The translations under genes and the position numbers were made by a program. This document shows positions 4,108 through 14,200 of a stretch of DNA of 64,000 nt, in pieces. Position 1 is the stretch's first letter; every line of letters begins with the position of its first letter. Where the stretch lies: NCBI GenBank assembly GCA_964658305.1, contig OZ210885.1, positions 25,110,001 through 25,174,000 of the forward strand, read 5' to 3'. The notes under the pieces were generated by a model that worked only from the letters and a program-made list of their open reading frames with translations, had not been told where the DNA came from and did no database searches. This DNA comes from Leptogorgia sarmentosa. Taxonomy: Eukaryota.

Positions 4108-5197
4108 GTATTAAAGATAATCAATACCACATGTGGTATTTTCTCCTTAATACAATTTCAATCAATTTGAGTATAACTATAATTTGGCAATTTTCAGGAT
4201 GCTAGAGGAGGAAAAAAACAAAGAGAAGACTCAGAACATGACTACAAGAAAGGTTCTGGGGGTTATATAAAGGTGCAAGGTACTAGAAAACTTGACTGTC
4301 CTGCAACCATACAAATCCGTGCTGTGCAAATATTTACGGAGTATAAAGTTGGAGAAACAACCTCAAAAAAAGCACTTAGGAAGTCTAAGGAAGGAGTGTT
4401 GCAACAGCTTCGTGATGACTTTGAGCAAAACAAAAGCATGGTCAGTGTGATGCGCTATTATATAAAAATCCCATTGATGATGGAGCACAAATCTCATCCT
4501 GTAGGACACACAGCTACAGTTGGCCACTATGTGGATGGAAAGGTGATCGACAAAATCCATGAGCTAGTGGCATCTAACATCACCAGTCCTGTGATGGTTA
4601 GTAAGTGTTTGGAACAATATGTAGAGAAAGAACTTTTTGGTACGAGCAGCCAAAAACCAAGCAAGGCTAACCGTAGATACTATCCCAGCAAGCACTCATG
4701 TGAGTAAGTACTCATGTGATGACCAGGAGTCATTAAAAAAGAAAGTGGAGGAGTGGGAAAAGGCTACACCAAAATCCAACTATTTTGTGAGGACACGAGA
4801 TGAAGTTACTGTTAATGGTGTGACTAAGGAAAACAAGTTTCTTTTTGTGCACCAGGAAGAATGGCAAAGAAAGCTGCTGTTAGGATATGGCGGAGAGCTT
4901 GTTTTAATGGATGCTACTTACAAGATGACAAAGTATGCAATTCCACTATTCTTCGTCTGCGTTCATGGGAACACTGGCTACACGGTCATAGCTGAGTTTT
5001 TATGCCAGAATGAAGATTCAGCAAGCATCCAGGAGGCACTGGCAATTTTGAAGGCATGGAATCCCTGCTGGAACCCCAAATATTTTATGGTGGACTATTC
5101 TCAATGCTCGTAATGATATGCGAACAACAAATTAAGGACAAACAAAGGTATTATCAAGCATAATGGAATAGATTATGCGCATGGATGGGTAACAGAG

Positions 5198-5207
5198 CTA
5201 TAAAAGG
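5198..5207 (+). promoter_or_regulatory. Candidate TATA box of the YR retroelement
   Basis: CTATAAAAGG about 100 bp inside the left end and about 100 bp upstream of the ATG at 5302. Confidence 0.45.
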
Positions 5208-5301
5208 TGGAAAACGCCATGAACTCGGCTCTTGTTCAGTTACACGATTGAAAGCAAGTGGCGATCTTTTGGAAGCAAGTGCACGACTCACCCGAATTCT
5301 T

Positions 5302-5436
5302 ATGGCCGAAGAACAAGTTCAGTTCCCTCAGGAACCCGTACACGAACCAATGGAGGCTCAAATCGAACCAGCCGATCCCGCGCCGCTGGTGGAAAATCCA
5401 AATGACGCCCCAATGCCAACCGACAATGACTTGGAG
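5302..5436 (+). CDS. Predicted shared leader exon (45 aa, acidic/Pro-rich) of the YR retroelement
   Basis: ATG at 5302; MAEEQVQFPQEP...DNDLE ends at GAG|GTAATT, a phase-0 donor. Confidence 0.6.
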
Positions 5437-5890
5437 GTAATTACAATCCTTGTTCTGCATTCTTGTCATCTCAGACCTTTGTTATTTTACTGCCTCACAT
5501 CGGCTCCCTCTGCGTCGTGTTACGCTCACCAGCCTTCTCGTTCGCTGGATTCTCGCTGCATATCACGGTTCGCCCGATATATAGGTTTTCATGCTATTTA
5601 TTGTATTTGTCTTGGATAATTTCGTTGTTTCAGCATGGCCTGTCCCGTGGATTCGGGTGAAGTTCTGCATGATTACATCGCGATTAGTTGCTTTTGTGCC
5701 CACTCATGCCGTGTTAGTGATTGCCACATCGGCTGTAGTTTCGGGTTTAGTTACCGACCCTGGTGATTATGTGTTTCTCCTGTAGTTTGCCGCAGAGGTT
5801 CGCGATCCCGCCTATATTGCTATGGGCCGAGAGAACATGAAGTCTAGGCATACTTATTTGTTAGGAACGCGCCTACCTTTCTGTGCTATG

Positions 5891-6420
5891 GGCGAGATTT
5901 CGCCAGGATTGAGTTCACGGCGGTTAATATCGGCCAGGTTTCGCCAGATCACAGTGGTTTATACTGTGGGTGAGATTTCGCCAGAGACGCTGTGCTTGTA
6001 GTGCGGTGCTTTGGCCCGAGTTGACACAGTCGTTCACTAGGCGCGAGATTTCGTGAGCGACAATTACATGTTATATGGGCGAGATTTCGCCACACAGTAA
6101 TTATAGTGGTTGATCTGGGCGAGGTTTCGCCAGGCACGAGTTTACAGTCGTCAATAGGCGCGAGATTTCGCGAGCGACGAGCTTATAGATGCTGTAGGGG
6201 CGAGAGTTTGCCACACAGTAATTACAGTGGTTGATGTGGGCGAGGTTTCGCCAGGCACGAGTTTGCCATCGTCAATAGACGCGAGACTTTGCGAGCGACC
6301 GGCTTATAGATAATGTGGGGGCGAGATTTCGCCACAAAGCAATTACAGATTACAGTGGTTGGCGTGGGCGAGGTTTCGTCACGTACGAGTTTATAGAGGT
6401 TATATGGGCGAGCGTTCGCC
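5891..6420 (+). repeat. Array of 13 palindromic 14-bp motifs (GGCGAGATTTCGCC) at about 40-bp period, with a 121-bp higher-order unit
   Basis: Motif starts at 5891, 5932, 5969, 6042, 6078, 6118, 6159, 6199, 6239, 6280, 6320, 6367 and 6407. Confidence 0.9.
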
Positions 6421-6476
6421 AGAGCGACATTGCGAACCTGTATTTATTGATTGTTTTGTTTGTTTTTTTGGCCTAG

Positions 6477-7166
6477 ACCCTTAAGGCAGAACTCAAGAGT
6501 CTGCGGGAGTCGGTTGAGGTCTTAACCAAAGCGACGGTAGAGAAGGTGATCGCTAAGATATTGAATTACGCTGCGCGTCCTTTATCCGAATTCAACAAAT
6601 TTGAGGCGTTGGATATGGTGGGGAACCTCCATAATGTCTCACACGAGCAGCAACATGCCAAACATGCATATCATCGCATGGTATATCAAACGTTGCGGGG
6701 GGAAATGCCTGTCCAGACGGAGCAGTTTCGTAGTTTGCTCTTACGTTTGTTGGGTGATAAAGACCACAAACGTATTTTTGATATTGTCTCCAAGGTGGAG
6801 AAGCAATTTCAGCGCCGTGCTCGCGTTGGGCCACAGCTTCCCGATTTCAATGCTCGCGCCCGAGTTCCTCCATATCGTCGTAATGCTGGTCGGTGTTTCT
6901 ATTGTCAACGTTTTGGCCACTTTCAAGCCCAGTGCCTTCAAAAGAAACGTGATGTACCGCAAGGCCGGGGCAGCCCGGCAGGTTCCAGCGTACAATCAGT
7001 ACTGCGAAGCTTCTGTCAGTTTGCTGTACCGGCCTCGGCGTATACATATCTAGATTTTGTCAATGGAAATGCGCATATGTTAGATTTGTGTGTAATATTT
7101 ACTTCATTATATTTGGTTTCTCTGCTTTGCTTTTGTTGTTTCCATTTATTGGGTAGCATGTCATAA
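6477..7166 (+). CDS. Gag-like protein with CCHC zinc knuckle (3' exon)
   Basis: T-rich acceptor ...TTTTTTGGCCTAG|ACC, in frame with ORF 6546-7166; CFYCQRFGHFQAQC. Confidence 0.75.
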   Translation, partial: TLKAELKSLRESVEVLTKATVEKVIAKILNYAARPLSEFNKFEALDMVGNLHNVSHEQQHAKHAYHRMVYQTLRGEMPVQTEQFRSLLLRLLGDKDHKRIFDIVSKVEKQFQRRARVGPQLPDFNARARVPPYRRNAGRCFYCQRFGHFQAQCLQKKRDVPQGRGSPAGSSVQSVLRSFCQFAVPASAYTYLDFVNGNAHMLDLCVIFTSLYLVSLLCFCCFHLLGSMS

Positions 7167-7324
7167 GGTGGGGTCCACTCGGTCTTTTCCTGCGGGTCCG
7201 GGGATATGAGCGCTTTGAAACAGGGTATCTCAGTCAGCCCTCCCTGCGTTCGCGGGGTCTTGGCGATCATATCCTTGCCGACCTTTTCTGGGTCAGATCT
7301 GGGGACTTCCTTTGTCTGTTGTAG

Positions 7325-9559
7325 AGACGGGTACCTGCCACTACCGTAAGCGACCGATTTGGGCAACAAGTCCAGGAATCGGTGGCCCAGATGCCTGTCC
7401 TACAATGGATTGATTCTTCTGGCGGCCCCGTGTTGGTCGGTGGGGATATGACGCCCAATCAAGATCTTGTGGCACACGTTTCCCAGGTCGAAAAAGGCCT
7501 GGCGTTGGGAGACGTCACTACTCTAACCTTACGCGATCCACGGACGTTCCATGTGGGGGAACTGCACAATCATGTCGAGTCGTGGACGGCGATGGCATCG
7601 CGCAATCCTTCTCCCGATCAGGTGGAAGTCTTAACGTGGATTAAACATAGGGTCTCGGTTTTCCCCTATTTTCAACATTTCAAAGGGACCTACCAACGAA
7701 TTTCGTATGACTCGGACCGCCCACCGCCTACACAGTTTCCCAATAATAAAATATGTGCCCAGTTTCAGGATTTCATTACCACAACCATTCGGACTCGTGT
7801 TGCGATAGGTGCTTTTGAAGTAGTTGGACGAGTTGGGGTGGTCGAGCCCCCTCATCTCGTTCTCCCCCTCACCGTTGAGCCACGAAAACCTCGTCTTTGT
7901 TACGACGCTCGCTTTCTAAACCTGTGGATGAAGGATCAGCCGTTCAAATTGGACTCCTTGCGCGATCTTCCCCGTTACGTTGGTAAAGATTCCTACCAGA
8001 CCATTCTGGATGACAAATCGGGTTATGATCACATCTTCATGACAGACGAGAGTCGCCCGTATTTTGGCTTTCAATGGGAGGGATGGTATTTTACTTATTG
8101 CACACTTCCCTTTGGCTGGAAAATATCTCCATATGTGTACCATACTACTGGTTTGCTTCCAACAAATTTCTTTCATTCGCTAAGATTACCGTGTCTTTTG
8201 TATATTGATGACCGTCATAATGGACAACTTCAGGTGCCATTAACTGAGGGCGCATACGCTGCATTGGCGACAGATGATGAGCGCCAGTTTGCCGCTGCCA
8301 AATCGGCCATCTTTCTTGTCGTATATTATTTGGTTACTCTCGGTTACTTCCTTGAGCTGAGTAAGTCCATTCTCGTTCCGTCGAGGGTGGTTCCTTACCT
8401 CGGCTTCCGAGCAGATTCCATGCATCAGGCGTTCAGGCTCATCCTCACCAAACGCGATCGTTTTGTCCAGCTCCTACATGAGATGTTGAGAAAACCAAAA
8501 GTCACTGTTCGTGATTTGCAACGTTTAGCGGGAAAATGCATCGCTTTTTCTCTCACCGTTCCAGCGGCCAAGTTATTTACCAGAGAGATGCATTCTGCCA
8601 TTTCTAGACACGTTCGCCCTTTTCCCCTCAACGATGATCTTAAAGCCGAGATAGAGCATTGGTTATTTCTCGACAATTGGGATGAGCCTTTGCCGTGGCG
8701 GGATGAACGACATGTTCGTGTGTCTATGGCGACCGACGCGTCCAATTCGGGCTGGGGCGGACTGATGTTGTCACCCGTTTCTGAACATGTTTCGGATTAC
8801 TGGGTGGGGGCAGAGTGTAAATGGGATATTGCCACCAAGGAAGCTACCGCAATTCATCGAATGTTGTTAGCGCGTCGTGATTCGCTGCGGGACACTCATG
8901 TGGATGTTCATGTTGACAACCAGTCAGTCATCCATGCATGGAATAACGAACGTCCCCGCAGTCCTTCGCTTCTTCAGGCACTCAAACAACTGTTTTTCAC
9001 CACTCTTGACATGAATGTCGTGTTACATCTCGTCTACATTCCAACGCAGGAGAACCCGGCTGATTTACCGTCACGTCGCCTATCGTGCCTCGATAGTCAC
9101 CTAACGCATTCATTATGGAACGTCGTTCAGAGGGACTTCGGGGGCCCTCAAGGGCATACATGTGATTTGATGGCCCTCGACTCCAATGCTATGTCCGATT
9201 TGGCAGGACAGATTCTTCCCCACTTTACGCCATCACCTGGATCGGCAGGAGTCAATTTTTTTGCGCAGAATTTTTCTCAGCACCAGGATATTATGCAGTT
9301 TCCCTATGTTTTCCCTCCCGCGGTGTTAGTGGGTCCGGTTTTGTCTGTCTTGTGCAGCCTCCGTCAGCCCTGCACCATCGTGGTAATCGATGCTTATCCG
9401 AGGCAGTATTGGTGGCCGTTGTTGGTGTCTCGATCCCGCAAGTCACTCAAACTGGCGTTGAAAGACGAATCGGGAGTTCTGTTGGTTCCCTCTAACAACG
9501 GTTGGGTGCCTCATCCGGGTTTACCTGGGGACTTGTGGGTTTTTGCGCTTGAATTCTGA
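7325..9559 (+). CDS. DIRS-type reverse transcriptase-RNase H-adenine methyltransferase-like polyprotein
   Basis: LDDKSGYDH, LPFGW, YIDD; RNase H ATDAS..KEA..VDN..NPAD; C-terminal DLMA...PYVFPP...YWWP; frame opens right after acceptor CTTTGTCTGTTGTAG| at 7324. Confidence 0.9.
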   Translation, partial: RRVPATTVSDRFGQQVQESVAQMPVLQWIDSSGGPVLVGGDMTPNQDLVAHVSQVEKGLALGDVTTLTLRDPRTFHVGELHNHVESWTAMASRNPSPDQVEVLTWIKHRVSVFPYFQHFKGTYQRISYDSDRPPPTQFPNNKICAQFQDFITTTIRTRVAIGAFEVVGRVGVVEPPHLVLPLTVEPRKPRLCYDARFLNLWMKDQPFKLDSLRDLPRYVGKDSYQTILDDKSGYDHIFMTDESRPYFGFQWEGWYFTYCTLPFGWKISPYVYHTTGLLPTNFFHSLRLPCLLYIDDRHNGQLQVPLTEGAYAALATDDERQFAAAKSAIFLVVYYLVTLGYFLELSKSILVPSRVVPYLGFRADSMHQAFRLILTKRDRFVQLLHEMLRKPKVTVRDLQRLAGKCIAFSLTVPAAKLFTREMHSAISRHVRPFPLNDDLKAEIEHWLFLDNWDEPLPWRDERHVRVSMATDASNSGWGGLMLSPVSEHVSDYWVGAECKWDIATKEATAIHRMLLARRDSLRDTHVDVHVDNQSVIHAWNNERPRSPSLLQALKQLFFTTLDMNVVLHLVYIPTQENPADLPSRRLSCLDSHLTHSLWNVVQRDFGGPQGHTCDLMALDSNAMSDLAGQILPHFTPSPGSAGVNFFAQNFSQHQDIMQFPYVFPPAVLVGPVLSVLCSLRQPCTIVVIDAYPRQYWWPLLVSRSRKSLKLALKDESGVLLVPSNNGWVPHPGLPGDLWVFALEF

Positions 9560-9780
9560 TGTCTGCCTGGCTCATGTCTCCCCTCCTAGTATATTGACGG
9601 TGTTAGTGAAATGATGGTCACAGACTGCATGTACATATGTGTATATTGATATCCATAGATACATAGATATATAATTATATACCTGTAATGGTGTGATCCC
9701 TATTAAAATACCAGACGTGTCTCATCAGGTGGTTTGTATCGCTTATAGTTTCTCAGTTTGGCCGTCTGTTATTCTTTTAG

Positions 9781-11121
9781 GCACTGCCAAGTATTGCCAA
9801 GCTATTCGTTCCTTCTGTAAAATGCCCCCAATGTGGGCATGCTAATGACTATGATTTTTTATATTGCCAATGCTGTGGTTACTGCCGGAAAGTGGTTCGT
9901 CAGGCAAACTATGATCAGCCTATTGTGGTTGATGTTGCGGCTATTGATCTGAGGATCCAGCAATTGTGTAATTTTGATAAAGCCACGAGTTATTCCAAGC
10001 AGAAAGAGTCGTTGCAACGAGAGTTGGAGGTGTTTTTAGCTGCTCTCCCTGGCCGTCGCTCCATAGTGTCAGCTGCTCCCAGCGATCTATGTCGTTTTTT
10101 GGTTTATAAGGATAAAGATGGAAAAACCCAGGTTCATCAACACGGCTGCCAGTTTCTGGGTCAAAAGGGAAAACATGGCTGTGGTTGTCCTATGCGACTT
10201 TCCTATAAGACGGTGGATTCGTATATTGGTAAGCTGCGATCTATTTTTCACGCAAATGGTCGAGATGGTGAATGGGATAAGCGGCTGGGTCTAGGTAACC
10301 CGGCAGCTGATAAGTCAGTTAAAGACTATCTACGCTTGGTGACTGCTGAGCAACTGCAAGCACGAGTTACACCTAAGCAAGCTACTCCATTTTTTGTTGA
10401 CAAGTTGACACAGTTGTCTTTACACCTTGAACGCAAGCTGGAGTCTGCTACAACGTCTATTGACCGGTTTCTCGTCGCTCGAGATCAGGCGTATTTCAAA
10501 CTCGCCTTTTTTAGTGGGGACAGGCCTGGTGACCTGGGCCAGATAAAAGTTCCGGAGATTCTCCGCTTTCCCAATGACGATGGTATGCTGCTCAATCACA
10601 TTTGGGGCAAAACGCTACGTGACGGCGATCAGAATGTTTTTGGTGTTCGTCGTAATCCGCATATCACCATTTGCCCTATTCGAGGTGTTGAGCAGTACAT
10701 TCAGGTTGCCCGTCAGATGAAAGTGGACCTCACTTCGGGATATCTCTTCCGCCCGACGACTCCCAAAGGGGGAATTCAAGATGCGCCATTCACGTCTTCG
10801 GCGGCCAAAGCTCGTTTAAAAGTATATTTAGGACAAATGGGAATGGATGACGGGGAGACGCTGCATGGGTTTTGAGCGGGCTGTGCCATTACTCTTGCCC
10901 TTACTGGTGCTGATCTGGCGGACATTATGCAGCATGTTGGCTGGGCTCGGCGGCATACAGCTTTGTATTATATGCAGTTGGCCAAGGTCTTACATCCCGC
11001 CGGAGCTTCTGCTCGCTTGGCCTCTGAGGATCTTGGGAATGCGGTTAACCCGTGGCAGGATGCAAATCAATTGCAACGATTTGTGGCCGCATTTCCTGTA
11101 GGCGCCTCGACGCGTTCGTGA
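9781..11121 (+). pseudogene. Zn-ribbon + ALOG domain + tyrosine recombinase; catalytic HxxR Arg replaced by TGA
   Basis: CPQC..CQCC; ALOG-like GKTQVH..C..CGCPMRL..VDSYIGKLR..NP; SGDRPGD, GKT, TLHGF*AG (TGA 10873-10875), HVGW..ALYY continuing in the same frame to 11121. Confidence 0.88.
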
Positions 11122-11211
11122 GTTTGGTGGTGGGAGGTAAATGTAGGTGGCTACGAGTGTCGTACTTGGTGTGATAACTAGAGGATAGGTTCAGGAGGAA
11201 AGTTAGTTTTG

Positions 11212-11282
11212 GGGTTAAGGAATGAGTATTGGGTTAAGGAATGAGGATTGGGTAAGAAATGAGTATTGGGTGAATGAGAGGG
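11212..11282 (+). repeat. About 19-bp G-rich tandem repeat (GGGTTAAGGAATGAGTATT), about 4 copies, in the 3' end of the YR element
   Basis: Units start at 11212, 11231, 11250 and 11268. Confidence 0.8.
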
Positions 11283-14200
11283 TATGTTGGATTTGGTTCG
11301 TGGGGATGATGAGGATGGGCGTATAGACAAAAAGGATCAGGTTGGACGCTGGCGCTGATCAATATTGCCATACCTTAAATAAACTGAGCATGAAGTCGAG
11401 CATTGAGAAATAGTATACTATTCCCTTGCTGAGATTGATGCAATTGAGAAGTGTTTTCCAACAATCACTGTCTATATCTGTGATTTTCACAGGGTCCAAG
11501 CTTGGCAAAGGTGGGCCAAGGCCAGCAAAAATGGTCTTTCCCATGACCAACAAAAGGACTTCCTCAGGCTGATGCAAAACTTGGCATATGCAGGAACACC
11601 AGAGCAGTACAACAAAAAGCTTGAAGAATTGAAGAAATGAAATGTGTATGTGGAGAACCGCAAAGTTCGTGATTATTGTGATAAGGTGTGGCTGCAGTGC
11701 TTTGGTCGGTGGGCACATGCTTTTAGAAAGCAACAAGTGGCCAACATAGTCAACACTAACAATGGTGTTGAAAGGCAAAACCACCTTTTCAAGTACAGTT
11801 ATCTGCCACGATCGATTGACAAGTCCATATATGGTATAGCACTGATGCTGGTAGAGTCATTCATACCAGACTCATATCAACGGTACCTGGACACCAACCT
11901 GAAACTGAGCAGCTGCCACAGAAGATATAATGAAGCTATTCCAGAATATTTGCACAATCGGCCACCCAACTTTGTGAAACACTGCCTCAAAAGCAAGTTC
12001 CCCTCAGCTGAATACAAGCAGTATGACATCAGGTGTGTCAACCATGAAAGGGGTGAATTTCTAGTTAGAAGCACTCATGACAGCAACCTGTTCTATGCTG
12101 TTAAGTTTGAGACACCTAGCTGCCAATGTGAAAGTTGGAGAAAATCCCAGTACCCATGCAAGCATTTCTTTGCAATTTTTAATTTCTTTGATGAGTGGAG
12201 TTTTTCATGCCTCCCAGAATTCTACAGAAATAGCGTTTTTCTCACCCGTGACATTGACCATGTCACTGCTCATATGCCTGCAGGGTTAGATGTAGAGCCT
12301 ACAAAGCAACAGTGTAGCTCTCAATGTGGTTCAGTAAAGAGTAATGATGATGCCAACAGTGAGGGATTAGAGAATGAGAACATTATTTCTGTGGCAGAAG
12401 CTGACCATGATTCTGATCGGAAACCAGACGAAGGGAATCCTGATGAAACAGCGAAATCATCCACCTGGCAACCTAATGCAACGAAAGTCCGTAGGATTCT
12501 TCTGGAAAAATTAGACTCTCTAAAAAATCTTGCTTTTGTTGTTGACGACTTCAAAGCACTTGACGATGCCAGTTCAGCCATTGACAAAATCATTTTGGAT
12601 CTTTATGGACGTTGCACTGATCAAAATGGGCTTCCACTATGCCAAAGTCCAGTTAAAAAGAAGCTGAAGTGTTGATTACCATAAGGTGTTTCACAAGAAA
12701 TTGCCAAAGCGAAGAAAGTTTACGAAGAAAGTTGCATCTCATGTCACTGTAGAAGAGAAAAAGCCTGTGGAAACTATTACAACAGAGGAAGTGAGTTTGT
12801 TCAGTATTTTGTGATATTTATATAATATGAATGTTTAATATTTGATATTTGATTTATATATTATATATATTTGATCTGCAAGTTGTTTTATACAGGTTGG
12901 TTCAATTTGTGATGTTGAGGAAACAAATGTTGATGGCATTGATGAAGTACAACCAATAGATGTAGATGTCAGTGCGACTGCCAGGGCATCTAGCAAATGC
13001 CTCTTCAATAGGTATGAAATAAATGCACTGTCAGGCTGAACAATAAAGATGTCATTCAATCACAACATGACCTATTTTTGCAAAGTCTGTGTTATTAAAT
13101 GTCTTGTACATTAAGACTGAATTATACAAAGTCTATTTGTTTATTTTTTAGTGAATTAGATGATGGACAGTACCAAAAATGTGACCCGGTGACACTAGTG
13201 CAGTCAACTAAACTGTCTTTAAAGGCTAATGACTCTGTACTGACAATCGGTCCCTTTAAAGTCACATTATCAGACTTATGGAGTATCCTCCAGCCTGGGT
13301 CTGTGAGTCCATCTGTTTGCAAACAGATAAAGGATGACGTACATAGATTTGTGCCAGGATGGCTTGCTGACACTGTAAGTTAAAAAATAATTGCATTTTT
13401 TGTTGAATTCTAGATTAGGCTATTAAGCACATGCAGAATTATCAATATTTAATGTTTATGTCATACTCTGTAGATTATCGACTCAACCTTGTGGAAAATT
13501 TCTCATGCTGCCAAACACATTTTGTGTGCAGATACAACGCTTGGCGAAGTTGTAAAACGTGGCTCAAGCACTCGCCGTCTCTGGCATGGTGTGAAATTTG
13601 ACAACATAGAGAAGATTCTCATCCCACTGAACATCAGCGGAGTACACTGGAATTTGTTTGTAAGTGCAATTTCACTATTATATTTATATACAATAGTTAT
13701 GTTATTTACAATAATTATGTACTAATTAGTTCTTACTTTGTTGATGGGTGGTGTGTATGGCATGGAACTGTAGAGTATGTATTGTATATTAATGTACTGT
13801 ATTTTAGGCACTACCCTGCAGTTTGGGGGGGGACTCAATCATCCAATTGTGTGGCTAATTTGTTAAATTATAGAATAACAGGAATAGGTAACAGTGTGAA
13901 TATTATGGCCTTTATGGCCTCTACATGTACAGTCAGTTACCTGCACCCTTGCTATTTTATAATTTATTTATTTTTTATACTTTTTTACTCTAATCAAATC
14001 AGTTACTAACATTGTAAACTATTTCTGTTGCAAAGGTCATTGACAAAATTCAAAAAAGTCGTATCTATATGACCCCATGAATGGAAACACTGCTGCATTA
14101 AAAATAGAAGCCACTTCAAGTCTTTTTCAGCTACTTGATCAATTGAGGTACTGGTACTACCGTATGTTAATGTATTTCTCATTTCTTAGTGCATATACAT

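Follow-up and report, generated by a model that had tools for sequence, protein, structure and literature searches.

The window analysed here, a stretch of 64,000 nucleotides of Leptogorgia sarmentosa DNA (contig OZ210885.1, positions 25,110,001 to 25,174,000), contains a 6,323-bp tyrosine-recombinase retrotransposon at 5094–11416, inserted in the open reading frame (ORF) of a MULE/ZSWIM-type transposase. On balance, the evidence favours a unit-length, recent copy of a PAT-like element of the DIRS order with an ALOG-class recombinase, whose ends are lox-like half-sites and which was most likely integrated by the recombinase from a double-stranded DNA circle into an ACTATT of the MULE sequence.

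The insertion itself is documented by contigs from four public runs (X1, X2, X4 and X5; three samples, two studies) that map to 4800–11700. In all four, 5093 is joined directly to 11417, skipping 6,323 bases, with seven letters (ACTATTC) ambiguous at the joint. This heptamer stands at 5094–5100 and again at 11417–11423, in agreement with an earlier, sequence-only reading of this DNA that had described 7 bp common to element and target. That reading had also placed the element at 5101–11416; the insertion holds, but its limits are better given as 5094–11416 or, equivalently, 5101–11423. Across the empty site the MULE frame is restored as proposed, reading on as ...KYFMVDY / YSLAEIDAIEKCFP.... 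The empty-site contigs differ from the window flanks at 4883 and 4926, and their depth is about twice that of single-copy sequence. Further MULE copies therefore exist, and because of the flank differences and the doubled depth these contigs were rejected as evidence of excision; they probably stem from alleles or from MULE copies elsewhere. A second copy of the element was not found in the 64 kb by self-BLAST.

Ends of the element and the recombination site

The two ends carry a 13-bp arm, TTCTCAATGCTCG, at 5098–5110 and its exact reverse complement at 11397–11409. Direct reading and a repeat search agree with the sequence-only reading on this point, and no other exact match of the arm is present in the 64 kb. 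Allowing one gap of 1 nt extends the inverted repeat to 17 of 18 positions (local score 29, against 23 for the best of 200 shuffles). A match with two mismatches at 6844–6856 lies inside gag and was taken as chance. No long inverted terminal repeat (ITR), internal complementary region (ICR) or split direct repeat was detected in the window copy by repeat search, by self-BLAST against the 64 kb or by alignment of the ends with the interior. The terminal 60 and 150 nt score 20–23 against the interior on both strands, which is the level of shuffled sequence (means 19–22, maxima 23–31), and the only repeat that emerged from the repeat search and the self-BLAST against the whole window is a 121-bp tandem array. 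All three methods thus agree that this copy lacks the canonical repeats of DIRS, PAT and Ngaro elements, as had been claimed.

Relatives of the element were recovered from metagenome contigs (loci designated L001 and so on); their reverse transcriptases (RTs) are 37–63% identical and the gag–pol–recombinase layout is kept across families. Ten sites formed by joined ends were put in register for comparison. They have a common layout, in which an arm ending (A)AT is followed by an 8-nt spacer (9 nt in L020), mostly ending ACT, and by a second arm starting ATT; across the relatives’ sites, arms measure 11–15 bp and spacers 8–9 nt. As scored, the arms are complementary at 11–13 of 14 positions in six of the ten sites; a hand reading shifted by 1 nt gives 13/13 for the window site and 12/14 for L020, and pairing is poorer in L005 and L039. 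The inner arms (TGAGAAT / ATTCTCA) are widely shared, and the outer arms vary by family yet stay complementary, a co-varying pattern that would be expected of binding sites for two recombinase subunits. The four junctions tested all fold as DNA hairpins (z −4.8 to −6.9), and none of 200 shuffles folds as well. The arms that remain complementary from family to family and the hairpins bear out the proposal that the joined ends form a palindrome resembling a recombinase site. In L058 (3817–3898) and L011 (3935–4003), inverted symmetry around the junction extends to ~35–40 bp per side at ~74% identity, which could represent a step towards longer, DIRS1-like ITRs.

Copies begin or cease to resemble one another within ACTATT. 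Left ends start with ACTATT (window, L007, L043, L032, L029 and L045) or GCTATT (L024 and L042), and right ends pass through ACTATT (window, L022 and L019) or a form with one mismatch (ACAATT in L043, ACTGTT in L048, ACTATG in L065); in L. sarmentosa itself, another left flank reads CCTATT and another right flank ACTATA. The target-side core is within one mismatch of ACTATT in eight of ten cases. Recurrence of this core at independent insertions in several families supports the earlier suggestion that the short shared sequence is a crossover core. A 7-bp target-site duplication was considered and rejected: the core is found again at independent insertions, where its two sides often differ by one mismatch, and intact junctions contain it only once. 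By this comparison, the shared 7 bp are a recombination overlap, which is favoured in the target; that it is not essential there follows from the right flanks of L045 and L031, which are unlike the core.

The features of the insertion and of the element’s ends are as follows.

4625–5093, + strand: left part of the host ORF (MULE / ZSWIM1-3 RNaseH-like transposase; Pfam ZSWIM1-3_RNaseH-like E = 8.6e-10, MULE E = 1.3e-5)
5094–5099, + strand: putative crossover core ACTATT, left copy (seven ambiguous letters at both joints; same core at the solitary left ends of L007, L043, L032, L029 and L045)
5094–5251, + strand: left-end ‘A’ region, multi-copy in the species, with a TATA-like box at 5199–5206 (depth ~1,500–1,600, against 85–99 in the interior)
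5097–5110, + strand: left-end arm of the palindromic site (ATTCTCAATGCTCG)
11212–11271, + strand: 3′ non-coding stretch with a short tandem repeat (18/19-bp unit)
11351–11416, + strand: right-end ‘B’ region, multi-copy, beginning at a conserved GCGCTGATCAA...CCATACC motif and containing AATAAA at 11378–11383 (joints lead into 11351, 11362 and 11385)
11398–11411, + strand: right-end arm of the palindromic site (GAGCATTGAGAAAT)
11412–11419, + strand: 8-nt spacer of the site (AGTATACT), its last 3 nt forming part of the core (same layout in the junctions of nine relatives)
11417–11422, + strand: putative crossover core ACTATT, right copy, derived from target or element
11419–11637, + strand: in-frame continuation of the host MULE ORF, closed by its own in-frame stop at 11638–11640 and followed by a SWIM-finger ORF to 12675

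The right part of the host ORF matches the SWIM finger in Pfam. The in-frame stop of this MULE/SWIM transposase ORF lies ~220 bp 3′ of the insertion, and because of it the host MULE element was probably already dead when the retrotransposon inserted, or is otherwise broken.

Joined ends in Leptogorgia sarmentosa and in relatives

In the species’ own DNA, contigs of all four runs also join 11416 back to 5094, a step back of 6,323 nt, again with seven ambiguous letters. The depth of this right-to-left joint is 601, 475, 63 and 83 in the four runs, against 85, 99, ~3 and ~3 for the interior; the interior is thus single-copy, whereas the joint stands at 6–7 times single-copy depth in X1 and ~20 times in X4 and X5. 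The end-to-end joint that had been predicted therefore exists, as multi-copy DNA in four of four runs, and intact junctions are found in 11 loci of relatives. What it had been taken to indicate, a free circle, does not follow: because the interior is single-copy while the joint is 6–20 times deeper, the joint does not come from circles of the window element, and chromosomal tandems of deleted derivatives fit better. Right ends often abut left ends in this species. The end regions (5031–5261 and 11037–11498) are 15–18 times deeper than the interior, and one 128-nt contig stops at 5094.

Several other joints connect parts of the element that are apart in the window copy. Position 5251 is joined to 11385 in X1 and X2 and 5245 to 11351 in X5; a further joint leads from 6263 to 11362, another from 6434 to 7165 with 25 other letters between them (a derivative lacking 6435–7164, the region of gag exon 2), and another from 7723 to 11211 through 25 other letters. 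Taken together, the 6434–7165 and 7723–11211 joints describe a non-autonomous element of ~2.1 kb at ~7–12 times single-copy depth. Deleted derivatives are several times commoner than the full copy: at this likeness, L. sarmentosa has a single full-length copy, accompanied by at least a dozen deleted derivatives in which both ends are retained. The 5251–11385 and 5245–11351 joints, together with the right-to-left joint, suggest small units made of a left end and a right end, such as those described below for relatives. The short joints re-enter the element at the GCGCTGATCAA...CCATACC motif, which is therefore a candidate priming or stop signal; this motif starts the ‘B’ part in three families (window 11349–11376; L005, 11327–11360; L039, 6812–6836 and 7139–7165). 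One contig of the species that extends past 5300 runs into a G-rich run and then into the reverse complement of 5254–5263, in the manner of a fold-back.

With pol as query, 386 homologues were obtained (E up to 0.001), the closest of which show 57–63% identity; those few with species names belong to sea anemones, an octocoral and a hemichordate. Among the metagenome relatives, the overlapping contigs L005 and L001 (99.5% identity in the overlap) contain two full copies, head to tail and 94% alike, and the sequence between them is homologous base for base to the window right end, one core and the left end. L047 contains two full copies joined in the same way, and L043 and L048 are solitary copies of the L047 family. 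Two contigs close on themselves (L013, 6,722 bp with a 55-bp end overlap; L057, 8,664 bp with a 46-bp overlap), and each is a circle or else a tandem array. The recombinase match of L057 is located 5′ of pol, pointing to a deviating gene order or a composite. Overall, an intact junction is present in 11 loci (L005/L001, L004, L047, L020, L013, L015, L039, L038, L011, L034 and L058), a right end followed by flanking DNA in eight (L043, L048, L022, L019, L017, L045, L031 and L065) and a solitary left end in seven (L007, L043, L024, L032, L029, L045 and L042). L043 and L045 are two complete solitary relatives. No right end was found for L007, which appears to be 3′-truncated, and no left end of its own for L039. 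A collection of viral contigs contained no relative.

In three loci the junction is followed by a mini-unit rather than by a second full copy. In L020 the unit measures 320 bp: the junction leads into left-end sequence (186 nt), other sequence (~60 nt) and right-end sequence (80 nt), after which a second, identical junction occurs. L038 has a 278-bp mini-unit after its junction, and in L039 a left end, a C-rich tract and a partial right end give way to host DNA with a tRNA-Thr gene (L039:7299–7374, minus strand, ~130 bp past the truncated mini-unit). A full copy followed by such a left-end/right-end unit amounts to A1-ORFs-B1A2B2, and the layout of PAT and Ngaro elements is therefore present in L020, L038 and L039. 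The earlier view that the family lacks the known repeat logic is not supported, given these three loci, and in L. sarmentosa itself the 5251–11385 joint occurs beside the right-to-left joint. Between the left-end and right-end parts of the mini-units lies a C-rich, quadruplex-type tract (L020:6264–6322, L038:4950–4965, L039:7065–7080), followed in L020 by a 16-nt inverted piece of the 5′ leader; a motif search found no G-quadruplex motif in the full-length window copy, such motifs being confined to the mini-units of relatives. The C-rich tract and the fold-back may mark points at which DNA synthesis stops or turns back.

Coding content and transcription signals

The coding features of the window copy are as follows.

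5302–5436, + strand: predicted gag exon 1, 45 codons from the ATG at 5302, with a phase-0 donor (GAG/GTAATT), from sequence
5437–6476, + strand: predicted intron, with a tandem array at 5887–6428 (121-bp period at 6026–6348) and an acceptor made of a T-rich tract and CCTAG/ACC
6477–7166, + strand: gag exon 2 with a CCHC zinc knuckle (tblastn matches to the gag of relatives)
7325–9559, + strand: pol ORF with RT, RNase H and a methyltransferase-like C-terminal domain at 8993–9559 (Pfam; 386 homologues; AlphaFold2 model)
9781–11121, + strand: tyrosine recombinase ORF with zinc ribbon and ALOG domain, interrupted in frame by the TGA at 10873–10875

The sequence-only reading had listed Gag, an RT–RNase H–methyltransferase protein and a tyrosine recombinase. 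All are present, the methyltransferase by fold; the recombinase, though, is interrupted by a TGA that had gone unnoticed. The pol ORF (744 codons) is open in the window copy and in many relatives, and matches RVT_1 (E = 5.8e-7) and RT_RNaseH (E = 4e-5; 24.2 bits, just below the 24.8 cut-off) in Pfam. No Pfam methyltransferase family matches its C-terminal 189 residues at E up to 10. An AlphaFold2 model of this region (17-sequence alignment, mean predicted local distance difference test score 83.7) found its best structural matches, by VIA, in adenine methyltransferases. The closest was PCIF1 (Z 10.2, root mean squared deviation 3.3, 137 aligned), followed by KsgA/Erm/DIMT1 (Z 9.8–9.5), T4 Dam (Z 9.1) and TaqI (Z 8.4), and a Foldseek search against the PDB gave weak matches (best E = 7e-3). 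In the model, the domain has a class-I methyltransferase-like fold, an assignment that concerns the fold only. It contains an invariant F-P-P, at the place where adenine methyltransferases carry a (D/N)PP(Y/F) motif.

The recombinase ORF matches ALOG with E = 8.4e-23 and, with the stop read as X, ALOG_dom with E = 1.4e-22 and Phage_integrase with E = 1.5e-6 (residues 231–401); zinc-ribbon matches at residues 13–33 are weak. The TGA is the only break seen in the reading frames of the element. It aligns with the arginine of H-x-x-R in all three relatives compared, and in that alignment the other catalytic positions are in place (R..K..H-x-x-[stop]..W..Y). The gag knuckle, CFYCQRFGHFQAQC, has the spacing CX2CX4HX4C and scores E = 0.013 against Pfam zf-CCHC, below the cut-off. 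The gene appears to be split by the predicted GT..AG intron of 1,040 nt (donor 5436/5437, acceptor 6476/6477, phase 0); the L005/L001 family has the same ...LE/GTA donor and a strong in-phase acceptor, and most relatives have tandem arrays at the place of the 121-bp array in the window gag intron.

Two putative transcription signals, the TATA-like box at 5199–5206 and the AATAAA at 11378–11383, had led to the claim that a transcript of the linear element would lack both termini. For the left terminus this stands: the box lies 106–108 nt inside the left end in four families (window, L005, L039 and L020) and 29 nt inside in a fifth, and the transcript of a solitary copy would therefore probably lack the left terminus. 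For the right side it is not supported. In none of eight further junction loci do the 120 nt preceding the core contain a poly(A) hexamer, and AATAAA at 11378 was rejected as a conserved poly(A) signal, being present at one of ten sites with, in addition, one ATTAAA at −96.

Integration, replication and known systems

The course of events that we favour would run as follows. The recombinase would bind the inverted arms and exchange strands over an overlap of ~6 bp (ACTATT), a target that resembles this overlap being preferred but presumably not required. With a promoter probably ~105 nt inside the left end, transcripts of solitary copies would not contain the left terminus, and replication would probably proceed from copies whose right end precedes another left end, either that of a second full copy or that of a 190–320-bp mini-unit. 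Such templates are proposed because the joined ends occur internally only as the junction, which is present only where a left end follows a right end; right end plus second left end would supply the split direct repeats A1-ORFs-B1A2B2, and tandems or copies with a mini-unit would be the replication-competent forms. Circles with one junction would integrate as unit-length copies like that in the window, and recombination at directly repeated sites may interconvert tandems, unit circles, mini-circles and solitary copies. The window copy would be a dead end, without terminal redundancy and with a stop at a catalytic position of its recombinase. The sequence-only reading had invoked an undescribed route: the att/lox-like ends are retained, but a new route of replication is not needed, since the family is a known one (PAT-like, with an ALOG recombinase) and redundancy is available in tandem neighbours.

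A number of points weigh against this account. The contigs from L. sarmentosa are short, and full copies, deleted copies, tandems and circles are indistinguishable in them; the 5251–11385 joint reaches one-fifth of the right-to-left joint’s depth and does not occur in X4 or X5. In L045 and L031, which belong to one family, similarity stops just before the core and the flanks are unrelated. The core is off-centre in the palindrome, comprising the last 3 nt of the spacer and the first 3 nt of the right arm, unlike in simple lox/FRT-type sites. Only the window copy derives from a genome assembly. The relatives are metagenome contigs from a scan of 80 loci, those examined being the ones flagged by motif, palindrome or family comparison; identical B repeats allow a de Bruijn assembler to skip or loop A2B2, so that proportions among the metagenome loci, and the categories of a right end with flank or of two junctions, are not fully reliable. 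Finally, the PAT-like assignment is based on layout and gene content.

One alternative is that the window copy arose as a canonical A1-ORFs-B1A2B2 insertion and later lost A2B2, either through recombination of B1 with B2 or because the recombinase acted on the internal junction and the right end, in which case its repeat-less state would be uninformative about integration. A2(B2) units do follow the junction in L020, L038 and L039, and the right end of the window copy falls exactly at the expected end of B2. Solo AB units, the reciprocal product of such a loss, are described as scattered units for Ngaro elements in the part of Hackl et al. 2021 (PMC8547959) considered here, and the deep ends in L. 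sarmentosa suggest them in this species as well. On the other hand, B would measure only 32–66 bp in the window element; the coding part, with one stop, is almost intact, which points to a young copy; and the right ends of eight relatives, including the complete solitary copies L043 and L045, also lack A2B2, although assembly could hide such units. Secondary loss is in our judgement an unlikely explanation, if one that deserves to be kept in mind.

We give still less credence to a route in which solitary copies excise as circles or persist as episomes, with full-length RNA transcribed across the junction in the manner of a pararetrovirus. It would account for the joint in the DNA of all four runs, for the self-closing contigs L013 and L057 and for the promoter-like box 3′ of the junction in four families, given which a complete RNA requires a junction upstream of the left end. 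It is difficult to reconcile with a single-copy interior beside a joint at 6–20 times that depth, and with the two L005/L001 copies, 94% alike, which form a chromosomal tandem. Nor do the empty-site contigs help, as their flank differences and double depth mark them as paralogues or alleles; the viral contig collection yielded no relative, and the recombinase of the window copy is broken. Mobility by DNA only, that is, Crypton-like cut-and-paste by the recombinase with no part for reverse transcription in the making of new copies, appears very improbable. The ends do look like a plain recombinase site devoid of terminal redundancy, but the 744-codon pol ORF has stayed open in the window copy and many relatives, the gag–pol–recombinase layout is maintained across families at 37–63% identity, and internally deleted derivatives that keep both ends outnumber the full copy, as with other retroelements.

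With RT, RNase H and a tyrosine recombinase in place of a DDE integrase, the element belongs to the DIRS order. Its methyltransferase-like domain after RNase H, present at fold level, is a feature of the DIRS group (Dirs1-like and PAT elements) as opposed to Ngaro/VIPER. DIRS1-like ITRs of 66–316 bp with two ICRs near the 3′ end are absent, the inverted repeat being 13 bp (17/18 with a gap). PAT-like split direct repeats A1 ... B1A2B2 are absent from the window copy and present in L020, L038 and L039; a PAT-like Gag zinc finger (CX2CX4HX4C) is found in the ORF at 6477–7166, below the Pfam cut-off. The recombinase has the zinc ribbon, ALOG and catalytic domains of the ALOG-recombinase class, and the site has the inverted arms, the short spacer and the palindrome, kept while its sequence changes, of lox/FRT-like sites. 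As judged from sequence layout, the family is PAT-like and the window copy is its A1-ORFs-B1 form. The findings thus refine a class already known and do not establish another.

A1-ORFs-B1A2B2 is the defining layout of PAT and Ngaro elements (PMC4157794; PMC8547959). ALOG recombinases of this architecture occur in cnidarians, molluscs, echinoderms and amphioxus (Iyer & Aravind 2012, PMC3537659); in the text considered from that article, termini are defined only for an Ectocarpus element (~9 kb, 159-bp terminal direct repeats) and the metazoan copies are all called inactive. Nematostella and Lottia are reported to harbour Pat1-like elements of the ‘echinoderm form’ (Szitenberg 2014, PMC4157794), and one PAT-like family is common to Nematostella and Saccoglossus (Piednoel 2011, PMC3266345). 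DIRS1-like elements have ITRs of 66–316 bp and ICRs of 85–130 bp, and most begin and end with ATT (PMC3266345, Table 3); in DIRS-1 the ICR, which repeats the joined ends internally, is indispensable (PMC7192593). The passages considered from Malicki et al. 2020 (PMC7192593) describe the specificity of DIRS recombinases as without experimental study. The literature covered, in part and with the founding papers of the field outside it, contained no account of a lox-like palindromic junction with co-varying arms, of a 6-bp core or of repeat-less unit-length copies in this branch.

Until now, how tyrosine-recombinase retrotransposons integrate had never been defined at the level of the site. For this marine-invertebrate branch, a site is now defined with arms of 11–15 bp that co-vary, a spacer of 8–9 nt and a 6-bp ACTATT-like core, and since the intact junction, both half-sites and empty targets all occur naturally, recombinase-site assays can be designed directly. 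A simple account also emerges that links split direct repeats, solo AB units, tandems and repeat-less copies. In its most general form, which we advance only tentatively, unit-length copies bounded by half-sites would be the primary product of a one-junction circle, and the split repeats of PAT and Ngaro elements would consist of a full copy plus a solo left/right unit, by-products of site-specific recombination that reverse transcription does not rebuild; only tandem or circular templates would then be replication-competent, as with tandem pararetroviruses.

With PAT-like elements, the present family shares the gag zinc knuckle, the RT–RNase H–methyltransferase protein and a recombinase on the same strand 3′ of pol, and the relatives’ internal repeats, where present, lie 3′ of the recombinase as in PAT. 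By contrast, the window copy has no A2B2, and many relatives are tandems of full copies or solitary unit-length copies. The ALOG-bearing DIRS1-type retroposons (PMC3537659) have the same zinc ribbon–ALOG–catalytic recombinase, methyltransferase-like domain, gag knuckle and cnidarian hosts; what differs is that metazoan termini are defined here and that several relatives have open reading frames. DIRS1-like elements agree in order-level gene content, in the lack of a target-site duplication and in recombination at a short junction ending in ATT, whereas the inverted repeat of the window copy is only 13–18 bp and an ICR is missing. Ngaro elements share the A1-ORFs-B1A2B2 logic and the scattered AB units (represented here by mini-units and high-copy ends) but lack a methyltransferase domain, and the N terminus of their recombinase differs from that of the window family. 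The sites loxP, FRT and dif consist of two inverted arms of 11–15 bp and a spacer of 8–9 nt, and a site on a circle recombines with a chromosomal partner. The site described here has the same arm–spacer layout; it differs in that the proposed core is off-centre and that likeness to the partner extends over only 6 bp and is sometimes absent altogether.

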